This document shows, piece after piece, positions 1 to 3,014 of a stretch of 64,000 nucleotides of DNA (positions within the stretch are counted from its first letter, which is position 1; every line of letters starts with the position of its first letter). The DNA comes from a virus: IMG/VR virus record IMGVR_UViG_3300031760_000017; one strand, written 5' to 3'. The notes below the pieces were generated by a model. It made no database searches and was not told the origin of the DNA. It was given only the letters and a program-made list of their open reading frames with translations. A program made the position numbers and the translations under genes.

Positions 1-252
1 GAGAAAAAAAGAATTGCTAATTCAAAAGTTAGGTCAACTCTGAAAAAATTAGACCATAATTTTTCTTCACATGGTGCATATAAAAAAATGTATGGACAAT
101 GGGAGATTTGTGATTGGTATTTCTTAGAATCTTGGAAAGAATATTGGGAATGTGAGAAAAGAGCATATAAAAGATTTCCTGAAGTTTATAAAAAACCTTT
201 AAATAAAAAAGAAGCTTATAGAGCTTGGTATAAAGACTATAAAATGAAATAA
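1..252 (+). CDS. hypothetical protein, C-terminal fragment (gene starts upstream of window)
   Basis: Frame 1 is open from base 1 to TAA at 250-252 (...AYRAWYKDYKMK*). No motif recognised. Confidence 0.4.
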   Translation, partial: EKKRIANSKVRSTLKKLDHNFSSHGAYKKMYGQWEICDWYFLESWKEYWECEKRAYKRFPEVYKKPLNKKEAYRAWYKDYKMK

Positions 253-467: not shown

Positions 468-489
468 CTAAAATTGAATGTAGTATAAT

Positions 490-945
490 GTGAATATAGA
501 CGGCGTGTGCGTGCCTAAGCTCTAAAATCGTCGTGAGGAGCCCTCATGGTAACTGCTTCTATAGCTGAAGGTGCCTACTACATCTATTACAATAAGGTCT
601 AGTCAGCCTGTACACAATGGTGAAATGATATATCCGTGTACCGTACTAAAACGTATTAGGTATTGTAATGGCGTTATGGTTCTACCAATACGTTAAATTG
701 GGGAAATGCAAATGGAACTATTTATTATTAGTTGATTCGTTTAACTTAATAAAATCAATCTTTTTTAAGCAATAGTGCATTATTGCTAATGAACGAATCG
801 TGTATAAAAAAGATTGGATTTTAGAACGATTATATGTTGATTGTTTATTAGAAGATGAGGTGCGGAAGCGGGGGCAACGCAGTACCCATAAATGAATGTC
901 TCGGCGTTGAGTAGTCAACTATTAAACAATAAATGTAGAAATCGT
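490..945 (+). ncRNA. long structured non-coding region of unknown class (ribozyme/intron-like or other large ncRNA)
   Basis: No plausible ORF with or without TAG=Gln. G+C is visibly higher than the flanks. Helices include GTACAC (610-615) / GTGTAC (636-641), AACGTATTaGGTA (650-662) / TACCAATACGTT (683-694), GATTCGTT/AACGAATC and AGCAATA/TATTGCT. A crossing pair AAAATCAATCTTTTTT / AAAAAAGATTgGATTTT gives pseudoknot topology. Confidence 0.3.
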
Positions 946-948
946 TTC

Positions 949-1049: not shown

Positions 1050-1156
1050 TGTGCGGTGGTGGAATAAGTAGACACAGACTATATGAAAAGCGAGGTAGCA
1101 TCTGACTCACACAAATTCTCGCGGAGTCATGTGAGGTGTAAATCCTCACCCGCACA
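1050..1156 (+). ncRNA. 107-nt tRNA-like RNA: acceptor, class-II-like D-arm and T-arm, with a 54-nt insert in place of a normal anticodon arm
   Basis: Acceptor TGTGCGG/CCGCACA (7 bp) and U8. D-arm GTG-GAATAAGTAGA-CAC resembles tRNA-Leu. T-arm GTGAGG-TGTAAAT-CCTCAC has a non-canonical loop. In the insert, GCGAG/CTCGC and GACTC/GAGTC interleave, which predicts a pseudoknot. Confidence 0.35.
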
Positions 1157-1162
1157 TTCTTT

Positions 1163-1239: not shown

Positions 1240-1314
1240 TAGACATATACAGCAAATTTTTTCAAGAATAAGAAATAGACTTTTAATCTATAATTCTAAC
1301 TCAAAGTATGTCTA
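1240..1314 (+). ncRNA. small structured RNA, paralog of the terminal stem and 5' motif of the 263-388 element
   Basis: Stem TAGACATAT (1240-1248) / GTATGTCTA (1306-1314). It shares CATATACAGCAAATT with 267-281. Two stem positions differ from the first element by compensatory changes. An internal hairpin AGAAATAGA-CTTTTAA-TCTAT(AA)TTCT is present. No D-arm or T-arm, so it is not a tRNA. Confidence 0.35.
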
Positions 1315-1323
1315 GTTTTAATT

Positions 1324-1490: not shown

Positions 1491-3014
1491 ATGAATACTT
1501 TTCTTAATCAGATGGTAAGAGACAATAACATTACTCGTACAGAGAACGGTGGTGTAACTCGCAAGACAACAGAATCTAAGGTGCTTGATATGTTTGCGGT
1601 TGGCGGTGCTTATAGAAACCGTTCTGATGCAGATGTTATTCTTCTATTTAAGAACGCATTTGAGGAAAACCGTGAACTTGCTATGAAGTGTCTTTTCTAT
1701 CTTCGTGATGTTCGTGGTGGACAGGGTGAAAGACGTTTCTTCAGAACAGCTTTCCGCTGGCTTTGCGATAAGCATCCAGAAGTAGCAAAGAGAAATCTTA
1801 ATAATGTAAGTGAGTATGGTCGATGGGATGATCTTATTTATGTAGCTGAAGACACTAAGTGCCAGACTGCCGCATTTAATATCATTAAGCATCAGCTTGC
1901 TCTTGATGTTCAGTGCAAGACTCCATCTCTGCTTGCTAAGTGGCTGCCTTCTCAGAATGCTTCTAATAAAGATACTAAGCGTCTTGGTCATGTGCTTGCA
2001 AATTATCTTCATATGACAAACAAGGAATATCGTAAGACTCTTTCAGTACTGCGTGAGCGCATCAACGTTCTTGAACGCCTGATGAGTGCAAACCGTTGGG
2101 ATGAAATCGAGTTTGATAAGATTCCTTCAAGAGCTGGTATTATTTATCGTAATGCATTTGCTCGTCGCGACATTCTTGCCAAGAGATATGAAGCATTTGC
2201 TAAGAGTTCAGAAACCAAGGTAAATGCAGAAGCTCTGTACCCGCATGATATTGCACATAGAGCTTTTGATTATGGAATGAAGCGAGCTGACATTAATGCT
2301 CCTGAGCGTCTCATGCTTCAGAAGTATTGGGATAACCTTAAGGATTTCTATAATGGAAGAGAAGAGAATGGCATTGCGGTAGTTGATGTTTCTGGTTCTA
2401 TGAGTGGTATTCCTATGGAAGCCGCAGTTTCTATGGGAGCCTATATCGCAGATAAGGCTCACGGACCATTTGCTAATCACTTTATTACTTTCTCAGCTAA
2501 CCCTGAGCTAGTAAGATTTGAAGGTGTTGACATTGTTGATAAGTTCAATCGTTGTGTAAAGGCAAATTGGGGTATGAATACTAACGTTGCGGCGGTATTT
2601 GATATGCTTCTAAATACAGCTAAGAAGAAGCATGTAAAGGTTGAAGATATGCCTACTCGAATTTATATCTTCTCAGATATGGAATTTGATAAGTGCATGA
2701 CTCTTGATCCTAATTACCATGATGAATGGGGTTGGGGTTGGCATTCATGCAAGCATCCTTCTTCAACTAAGGAAGTAAATTCTGACCTTGAGAAGATCAA
2801 GAGAAAGTGGAGTGCTGCTGGTTATCAGATGCCTTCTGTAATCTTCTGGAATCTCAACGCTAGAAATAATCGTATTCCTGCTATCGGCGATGGTTTCAGT
2901 TATGTGAGTGGATTCTCTCCTTCCATGATTGATTCTATCCTTAGCGGTAAGGACGGTTATGACCTCATGCTTGATAAGCTCATGTCTAAGCGTTATGCGG
3001 CGGTTGTTGCATAA
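1491..3014 (+). CDS. Ro60-like protein: helical DUF2828/TROVE-like N-terminal region plus C-terminal vWA domain
   Basis: ATG at 1491 follows AAAGGAG; the track's 1464 start is an upstream TTG. N-terminal TENGGV...LDMFAVGGAYR. vWA MIDAS motif VVDVSGSM (DxSxS). FSDMEFD and C-terminal GFSPSMIDSIL parallel Ro60/Rsr features as I recall them. TAG-free and G+C-richer than neighbours. Confidence 0.55.
   Translation: MNTFLNQMVRDNNITRTENGGVTRKTTESKVLDMFAVGGAYRNRSDADVILLFKNAFEENRELAMKCLFYLRDVRGGQGERRFFRTAFRWLCDKHPEVAKRNLNNVSEYGRWDDLIYVAEDTKCQTAAFNIIKHQLALDVQCKTPSLLAKWLPSQNASNKDTKRLGHVLANYLHMTNKEYRKTLSVLRERINVLERLMSANRWDEIEFDKIPSRAGIIYRNAFARRDILAKRYEAFAKSSETKVNAEALYPHDIAHRAFDYGMKRADINAPERLMLQKYWDNLKDFYNGREENGIAVVDVSGSMSGIPMEAAVSMGAYIADKAHGPFANHFITFSANPELVRFEGVDIVDKFNRCVKANWGMNTNVAAVFDMLLNTAKKKHVKVEDMPTRIYIFSDMEFDKCMTLDPNYHDEWGWGWHSCKHPSSTKEVNSDLEKIKRKWSAAGYQMPSVIFWNLNARNNRIPAIGDGFSYVSGFSPSMIDSILSGKDGYDLMLDKLMSKRYAAVVA

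Follow-up and report, generated by a model that had tools for sequence, protein, structure and literature searches.

The window analysed here is a 64,000-nucleotide (nt) stretch of viral DNA (IMG/VR virus record IMGVR_UViG_3300031760_000017). Its positions 475-947 (+ strand), in the 480-nt gap between the transfer RNA (tRNA) genes tRNA-Gln (396-468) and tRNA-Gly (949-1020; both located with ARAGORN and Rfam), most probably encode a stable, trans-acting structured RNA that belongs to a previously uncurated family of large (~400-670 nt) RNAs in the tRNA arrays of uncultivated large phages. The family is well supported, and neither Rfam 15 nor the searchable literature contains it; the RNA is analogous to the phage RNAs GOLLD and ROOL, and not homologous with them. 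A first-pass annotation had described a helix-dense stretch without a credible reading frame at 490-945, between these two tRNA genes. Its position was correct and the folded, non-coding stretch is real, but the actual unit is larger, spanning 475/478 to 947; stop-free runs in it reach at most 66 codons under code 11, with TGA as Trp or with TAA recoded.

Covariation and architecture of the RNA

The sequence of the window RNA alone proves nothing; the decisive proof is covariation in its relatives, and the comparison of related contigs, which had been proposed as a check, revealed both conservation and covariation. RNAalifold predicted 50 pairs for 20 diverse 5' domains, with a compensatory change in 38 of the 50. 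A 53-pair structure including the pseudoknot, counted on a MAFFT alignment (A4), had 94.8% of its cells paired, compared with 38-42% when the pairing partners were slid by 1-3 columns; double changes occurred in 40 of the 53 pairs (17-21 when slid), and the covariation score was 0.61 against ~0.1, the observed values being reached in none of 500 shuffles. A covariance model (R1) was made from A4, and in 20 members outside its training set 96.2% of cells were paired (39-45% slid), with double changes in 40 of 50 pairs and a covariation score of 0.68 against at most 0.115; the slid control is the relevant comparison here, because the alignment of these 20 members was fitted to the model. Conserved G-U pairs (e.g. 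U-G in 20 of 20 and G-U in 17-19 of 20 sequences, in helices P2 and P3) correspond to C-A mismatches on the opposite strand, so that the functional strand is the + strand, which is also the tRNA strand. These data show, for the 250-nt 5' domain, ten covarying helices including an H-type pseudoknot, formed at the RNA level by the + strand.

The whole RNA gene (475-947, +) extends from 7-10 nt past the 3' end of tRNA-Gln to 1-2 nt before tRNA-Gly, and all parts described below are on the + strand. Its first multi-helix junction is closed by P1 (ATGTAGTA at 478-485 with (T)ACTACAT at 576-583), in which compensatory changes were found in 8 of 8 pairs and 98-99% of cells are paired. The junction comprises P1a (GTG 490-492 / CAT 545-547; column 17/99 with 11 C-G and 8 U-A pairs), the conserved strand GAATATAGACGG (492-503), P2 (ACGGCG 500-505 / CGTCGT 529-534, with a variable loop; column 30/82 with 8 C-G, 7 G-C, 3 U-A and 1 A-U pairs), a further conserved strand TCGT(T/G)AG within 490-547 (UCGUUAG in the RNA), P3 (GGTAACT 548-554 / GGTGCCT 570-576; four pairs covary) and P3a (GCT 555-557 / AGC 563-565). 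The P3 loop, CTGCTYCTATGGCTGNAGG at 553-571 (CUGCUYCUAUGGCUGNAGG in the RNA), is near-invariant, and its pattern by itself recovered 43 viral contigs.

P4 (CTATTACAATA at 584-594 with TATTGTAATGG at 661-671) carries compensatory changes in 11 of 11 pairs and encloses P5 (AGG 595-597 / CCT 607-609), the hairpin H1 and the pseudoknot. H1 (610-641) consists of a stem (GTACAC 610-615 / GTGTAC 636-641), an inner GG 619-620 / CC 634-635, and an invariant 13-nt loop, TGAAATGATATAT at 621-633 (family form UGAAAYGAUAYAY); the stem sequence is unlike in each lineage while the loop is constant, and the closing pair covaries from G-C to U-A. In the H-type pseudoknot (642-659), CGT 642-644 pairs with ACG 651-653, the latter being located inside the loop of the hairpin CTAA 646-649 / TTAG 656-659; helix 8 is 100% paired (13 C-G / 7 G-C and 18 U-A / 2 A-U), as is helix 9 (10 G-C / 9 A-U). 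An interleaved pair of helices had been noted earlier at ~737-823; a pseudoknot does exist, but the covarying one is that at 642-644/651-653 x 646-649/656-659, and the AT-rich helices and the interleaved pair at ~737-823 make up the least conserved part of the RNA.

Downstream of P4, a block of conserved GCGTTA, the hairpin H2 and GGGG.AATGCA (670-712) is common to the short forms in L089, L103 and L113; in H2 (CCAAT 685-689 / ATTGG 697-701, loop ACGTTAA) 4 of 4 pairs covary (9 A-U / 9 G-C and similar). The invariant loops and strands of the family are the P3 loop, the H1 loop, GAAUAUAGGCGG and ACGUUAA.

The block is followed by a lineage-specific, AT-rich expansion (723-823) with the hairpins 750-767/805-823 and AGCAATA 768-774 / TATTGCT 781-787, which is found in the five closest relatives only, with one compensatory change (C-G to U-A), and is replaced by unrelated sequence in other members. 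A long closing helix (824-856 / 914-947) bears the 3' element at its tip; RNAalifold predicted ~30 pairs from five relatives, with one compensatory change (U-A to C-G), and since these sequences are closely related the helix is weakly supported, the AT-rich hairpins being likewise backed by the five close relatives alone. The conserved 3' element (854-914) comprises GATGAGGTG at 854-862, a stem (CAACGC 875-880 / GCGTTG 904-909), an inner stem (AG(T)AC 881-885 / GTCT 898-901) and the tail GAGTAG at 909-914. Its stem covaries across 20 members (14 U-A, 4 A-U, 1 G-C; 13 C-G, 6 U-A; 10 G-C, 8 A-U), and the family form, GAUGNGGNGNGGC-stem-ACCAAC...GUGU-stem-RAGUAG, is present in the window together with a lineage-specific GGAAGCGGGG insert. 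The window copy measures 442 nt to AGUA and 473 nt with the closing helix.

The long helices reported at first pass exist, with 16 bp and one bulge at 750-767/805-823, 11 bp at 584-594/661-671 and ~30 bp at 824-856/914-947. The G+C enrichment reported with them was found at both ends (0.40 at 475-722 and at 836-947), but not in the middle (0.23 at 723-835; window, 0.30). Further structural motifs were examined by eye and rejected: for a kink-turn (GAUGAGG/AGUA), a hammerhead (GAUGAG) and an 11-nt receptor (CCUAAG/UAUGG) the required partner strands do not fit, and for a pairing of the 3' GGNGNGGC with the 5' CUACC no covariation was seen.

The family and its genomic setting

The window derives from a large (~140 kb), low-GC (0.30) uncultivated phage whose nearest relatives in IMG/VR are contigs of 130-200 kb; topoisomerase II, an NAD-dependent ligase and a DnaB-like helicase are encoded in the window. 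Positions 1-1400 are the tail end of a tRNA array, which comprises 14-18 tRNAs at the matching place in the relative L001/L081. The array is followed by a gene for a DUF2828/DUF7788 protein (1491-3014; TROVE/vWA-like by Pfam; phrog_850, 'RNA-binding protein', by PHROG).

A 20-nt exact match to the otherwise unrelated locus L004 pointed to the hairpin loop ATGGTGAAATGATATATCC, and pattern scans with the H1 loop, the 3' block and the P3 loop retrieved many phage contigs and one contig of a metagenome-assembled genome (MAG). These collection scans are not exhaustive, as the viral scan with the 19-mer overlooked L004 despite its containing the 19-mer. The 250-nt 5' domain was found in more than 50 uncultivated phage contigs, each time within a tRNA array and on the tRNA strand. 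The scan of genome contigs with the 3' pattern gave 34 matches, 33 of them by chance (32 in GC-rich genomes, and the Lachnospiraceae contig L132); the sole true match, L138, is a contig of 18 kb that was binned with a Bacteroidales MAG.

With R1 (cmsearch), a sole copy was found in the 64-kb window, at 475-722 (214 bits, E 1e-52), with P1-P4, H1, the pseudoknot and H2 well over background. In 781 kb of related phage DNA, only L001 and a lone H1 hairpin in L004 were found below E = 1 besides the window. Matches on the other fetched loci fell into three tiers: full 5' domains (88-232 bits, ~55 loci), short forms with H1-H2 only (33-50 bits) and H1 alone (~20 bits).

The length from P1 to AGUA is 396-522 nt in the family, or 642-671 nt with a nested tRNA, and the variable stretch between the H2 block and the 3' element is 125-290 nt. 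Full members start 2-10 nt past the 3' end of a tRNA, often with encoded CCA, and many stop just before the next tRNA; the homologues adjoin many different tRNAs. The 3' hairpin of L103 and of L110 holds a complete tRNA in its terminal loop, and that of L107 a tRNA-like unit. Distinct sites with the H1 core motif number 94; 41 of them have tRNAs within 1.5 kb, and all of these tRNAs are on the motif strand.

No Rfam 15 family reached its gathering score in the window gap or in 30+ homologous loci, and an Infernal scan of 200-1500 at E<=10 gave, on the element, only a fluoride riboswitch at 525-584, dismissed as a chance match (16.6 bits vs 34). RNase P RNA had no model match (RF00010, RF00011 and others), and the motifs CR-I (GAGGAAAGUCC) and CR-V (ACAGAA..GGCUUA), which form its P4 helix, were not seen; ARAGORN found no transfer-messenger RNA (tmRNA) in the window, and its call of a tmRNA in the relative L009 indicates that the tool works in such phages. 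The lack of RNase P and tmRNA signatures noted at first pass was thus borne out, and strong covariation together with these negative searches agrees with its more general proposal of another large non-coding RNA. A blastn search of 50,697 GenBank phage records with the window element and two typical members returned tRNA matches or nothing; at this sensitivity no cultured GenBank phage carries the RNA. A full-text literature search for the conserved strings found none, and neither the work on viral structured RNAs (PMC10690425) nor a 2026 genome-language-model preprint describes the RNA.

No terminator-like site was found in 1-1600, and an apparent -10 box (TAGTATAAT, 481-489) was rejected as a promoter, the stretch being the covarying 5' strand of P1; at the other end, the closing helix ends at 947. 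The RNA probably has no promoter or terminator of its own and is most likely transcribed inside a polycistronic tRNA precursor; RNase P, cutting where tRNA-Gly begins, would set its 3' end, and RNase Z or another 3'-end-making activity at tRNA-Gln its 5' end. Ends set by flanking tRNA structures, cut by RNase P and RNase Z, are a feature of tRNA-punctuated RNAs such as mitochondrial transcripts and MALAT1/mascRNA, and the geometry alone (gaps of 2-10 nt to the tRNAs) would suggest such a likeness for the window RNA. Once released, the RNA would fold by itself and act in trans via its invariant loops, whose role may be in tertiary or quaternary contacts or in recognising a conserved partner connected with tRNAs or translation. 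By likeness to GOLLD and ROOL, the leading guesses at its function are RNA-only self-assembly and a tRNA-handling ribonucleoprotein.

Several observations weigh against a stable, trans-acting RNA of a new family. The minimum free energy of the single sequence is no better than that of shuffled sequences (z = -1.5 on the + strand, -2.3 on the - strand), the middle third of the RNA is not conserved, and one member (L288) is without H1 altogether. The ends of the RNA are placed only by the adjoining tRNAs and by conservation, and the family may be described outside Rfam and the searchable literature. Furthermore, variants of the H1 loop (GUUGAAAUGAUAUAUAC) show that its self-complementary GAUAUAUC is not a conserved feature. 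The idea of a kissing dimer through this palindrome is weakened accordingly: the final C of the loop pairs with the G before UGAAA, and its covariation to U-A destroys the palindrome.

Close relatives of the phage differ in the element. L001 (DUF2828 protein 98% identical) carries it at 91% identity. L034 (DUF2828 protein 96% identical) lacks exactly positions 507-907 of the window and reads ATATAGA-CGGCGT-TAAGTA at the junction; the direct repeat CGGCGT is present in the window at 501-506, in the 5' strand of P2, and at 902-907, in the 3' strand of the conserved 3' stem. L034 keeps the 5' 26 nt of the RNA (the P1 strand and GAATATAGA) and ~45 nt of its 3' end including GGCGTTAAGTA, which is conserved in distant members (e.g. 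L096). Since both ends of the RNA are retained, L034 represents a deletion between CGGCGT microhomologies and not the state before an insertion in the window; by this deletion allele, the RNA is dispensable.

Competing explanations and known large RNAs

The RNA might be the partner, as a giant Y-RNA-like ligand, of the DUF2828/DUF7788 protein encoded 540 nt downstream, a reading compatible with a stable trans-acting RNA, to which we assign a low probability. A DUF2828 gene lies in the fetched flank on the same strand at 10 or more RNA-bearing loci (30-99% protein identity), and in bacteria the genes for Y RNAs and Ro60 share a strand and are at most 4 kb apart (PMC4201824). Weak YrlA-like matches (37-41 bits over the full model, below threshold) are located 200-1,000 nt upstream of the large RNA at L089:1468-1586(-), L107:3881-3984(+) and L138:1758-1863(-), and a partial match of 29.7 bits at L089:694-759(-). 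YrlA (RF02553) with Ro60/Rsr resembles the present case in that a non-coding RNA stands beside a TROVE-type protein gene, with links to tRNA-like structure, and in that both occur in the same arrays. However, the window RNA is four times larger than YrlA, has no YrlA match on the element itself, and the Ro-binding motif (GNCGAAN0-1G; GNCGAAG) is not evident by eye. In 80 DUF2828 loci with 4 kb of flank, the 5' domain was found only in L001; its lack from nearly all of these loci implies that the protein does not need the RNA, and both features simply reside in tRNA-array neighbourhoods. A link of the DUF2828 protein to the RNA is possible and not required.

A group I-like or other self-splicing or self-cleaving ribozyme, the class suggested by the first-pass annotation, appears unlikely as judged from the sequence. 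Size, multi-helix junctions, a pseudoknot and invariant single-stranded nucleotides are typical of ribozymes, and hammerhead and RAGATH RNAs were found in related contigs. However, no intron or ribozyme model matched (including RF00028 with its P3-P8 core and P7 G-binding site, at the gathering score or at E<=10 in 200-1500), the element lies between complete tRNA genes and inside none, tRNA half-exons are lacking, and no conserved cleavage-site context was found. The L034 allele, in which a deletion has left both ends of the RNA in place, offers no intron-less exon junction, and the occurrence of homologues beside many tRNAs also speaks against an intron. The more specific reading as a group I-like intron is rejected.

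Less probable still is a mobile insertion between the two tRNAs, such as a miniature inverted-repeat transposable element (MITE) or a homing element, with CGGCGT as target-site duplication. The clean presence/absence polymorphism of 401 nt with 6-bp direct repeats at its flanks would fit, as would the many different tRNAs that family members adjoin. Both repeat copies, however, are functional parts of the RNA (the second in a covarying stem), a deletion explains the RNA ends left in L034 more parsimoniously, and neither terminal inverted repeats nor a second copy in the 64 kb were found.

Large and structured, GOLLD occurs in the tRNA islands of phages and prophages; it has conserved and variable domains and sometimes carries tRNAs in a linker or loop. 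Both GOLLD and ROOL form RNA-only nanocages, as seen by cryo-electron microscopy (PMC12286853). ROOL was first found in the rumen; it is phage-associated, near tRNAs, ~580 nt long and rich in junctions and pseudoknots (six junctions and three pseudoknots in the model), with few invariant nucleotides and without a known protein partner (PMC5737381). A divergent member of either family would share with the window RNA the habitat in phage tRNA arrays and rumen-type relatives, the large size, a variable region combined with conserved domains, and in some members a nested tRNA, as in the GOLLD linker. We nevertheless consider such membership very unlikely. The GOLLD (RF02032) and ROOL (RF03087) models gave no match at E<=10 in the window or in 30+ members, whereas the same scan does find a true GOLLD in L104 (156 bits; gathering threshold 150 bits, set on the conserved 3' domain), 5 kb from the short-form copy of that phage; moreover, none of the conserved strings of the RNA turned up in the published alignments and sequences of GOLLD and ROOL.

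The likeness to GOLLD (phage tRNA islands, at times an embedded tRNA) is one of lifestyle and is not evidence of homology. There is no similarity of sequence or model, the window RNA is conserved best in its 5' domain, its family carries the tRNA in the terminal loop of a small 3' hairpin, and GOLLD is at least 800 nt long against the 396-522 nt (642-671 nt with a nested tRNA) of this family. ROOL likewise resembles the RNA in its association with phages and tRNAs, its size, junctions and pseudoknots, but has other helices and motifs and no model match; self-assembly into cages is a property shown for ROOL.

A protein-coding gene read with reassigned codons, or a role at the DNA level (as an origin, att site or promoter cluster), can practically be dismissed, since only a + strand RNA explains the compensatory helix changes and the conserved G-U pairs, and the 125-codon minus-strand frame that is open with TAG as Gln (547-921, 5 TAG inside) is disrupted by a 1-nt indel at ~703 (GGGG vs GGGGG) between the window and its closest relatives, although CTA and TTA suppressor tRNAs in relatives and a slight enrichment of sigma-70-like matches in 1-1600 (12 vs 5.8) could be cited in its favour.

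Recurring modules and neighbouring features

Parts of the RNA recur elsewhere. H1-type hairpins with a variable stem and a constant loop of 13-15 nt, (G)UGAAAUGAUAUAUC, often followed by a T-run, stand alone directly 3' of genes for major capsid proteins (T4 gp23-like by eye, and HK97-like), scaffold proteins and prohead proteases; the loop has at least 120 exact matches in viral contigs, among them the contigs L158, L173, L256, L175, L178, L160, L236, L239, L188, L235, L258 and others of unrelated viruses. The core of the large RNA, GAAUAUAGG-hairpin-GAG[CUGCUYCUAUGGCUGNAGG]CUC, replaces the anticodon arm in tRNA-like genes of ~115 nt (L263:6470-6590(-), L265:402-516(-), L275:3075-3191(-), L278:2936-3053(-) and L284:3965-4079(+)), which score 34-44 bits as tRNA and have an acceptor stem, a Leu-type D arm, a T arm and an A73 discriminator. 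The discriminator and the D arm suggest that these tRNA-like molecules might be leucylated.

The recurrence of the H1 and P3 modules suggests that their loops are recognition elements for something general. We tentatively consider, at well below even probability, that the RNA represents a class of large RNAs of its own, of the same rank as GOLLD and ROOL, in which the core of GAAUAUAGG, hairpin and P3 loop is a portable functional unit carried either on a 470-nt scaffold or on a Leu-type tRNA body without an anticodon arm. If so, the RNA would be expected to act directly on translation or on the tRNA machinery, as an agent resembling tmRNA or a decoy, as a binder of the tRNA elbow or as a ribozyme, and not to be a passive structure.

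Receptors for the tRNA elbow that are based on T-loops comprise J11/12-J12/13 of RNase P, the distal loop of T-box Stem I (GGUGNRA) and the L1 stalk of 23S rRNA. The start of the H1 loop (GGUGAAA / UGAAA) and UGAAG in the P3 internal loop may resemble T-loop pentamers, the surroundings being rich in tRNAs here too, and there may be a similarity to the 690 loop of 16S rRNA. In contrast to these receptors, the window RNA has no RNase P or T-box model match, and H1 also stands alone after capsid genes, with no obvious role in tRNA docking there.

To our knowledge, few bacterial or phage RNAs above ~400 nt are this structured: rRNAs, RNase P RNA, tmRNA, group I and II introns, OLE, GOLLD, ROOL and HEARO. 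Of those with a known function, nearly all have proved to do sophisticated biochemistry. With the window RNA as a third large RNA, unrelated to GOLLD and ROOL, phage tRNA islands seem to recruit big RNAs time and again, and as GOLLD too can hold a tRNA inside, the window RNA provides an independent handle on the function of GOLLD and ROOL. The reused loop modules, H1 after capsid genes and P3 on tRNA-like genes, are concrete leads to a partner.

Other RNAs were observed in the same kind of arrays: the GOLLD at L104:9181-9694(+) (156 bits), RAGATH-33 (135 bits) and a type III hammerhead near its threshold (47.5 vs 48.5 bits), the RAGATH-33 and hammerhead loci among the relatives being L260:9998-10110(-) and L263:10003-10057(-). 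Several tRNA matches in L102 and L104 are 130-196 nt long and represent tRNAs carrying large inserts. An open reading frame (ORF) of 89 amino acids (aa) is located directly downstream of the large RNA in three lineages (L156:7954-8220(-), L165:296-562(-) and L171:1685-1948(+)), and the ORF is also found inside other tRNA arrays; further loci are L212:6771-7037(+), L010:1697-1963 and L025:1802-2068. It follows the pattern MF.NV.IG.P....DW..NEK..TLFT.TRFLP..KEAG...S.GEVR.N...L...L....C...KWGKK.L.IVVG; Pfam gave no match for it, and the window contains no homologue.

CTA-anticodon suppressor tRNAs were found in L081:454-527, L009:427-505, L093, L096, L159 and L182, and a TTA-anticodon tRNA at L008:561-635. 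With TAG and TAA suppressor tRNAs in their relatives, phages of this type probably reassign stop codons late in infection, and ORF calls under code 11 in the window may therefore be fragmented.

The array in the window also contains an odd tRNA-like gene at 1050-1158 (+), which was overlooked by ARAGORN and Rfam and has counterparts at L034:3534-3666 and L001:3557-3665 and in L096. It has an acceptor stem (GTGCGGT/ACCGCAC), an A73 discriminator, a Leu-type D arm (GGTGGAATAAGTAGACAC) and a T arm (GAGGTGTAAATCCTC), and in place of the anticodon loop an insert of 40-70 nt that is entirely different between close relatives. Repeat units starting with CATATACAGCAAAT at 265-321 and 1241-1320 (+), and at L004:2080-2150, resemble tRNAs without a D arm or T arm; the one at 274-321 has a tRNA score of 20.7 bits and a possible TTA anticodon, and a weak tRNA (25.6 bits) is located at 326-387. 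A small basic ORF (MSRSYKKTAYCGDHKGK...) is located at 88-252 (+), between tRNA-Phe and the degenerate tRNAs, and also at L001:2251-2553 and L034:2834-3135. Further small ORFs between tRNAs are present or absent among close relatives (L034:2335-2715, L001:3380-3550), which makes the tRNA array a mosaic.

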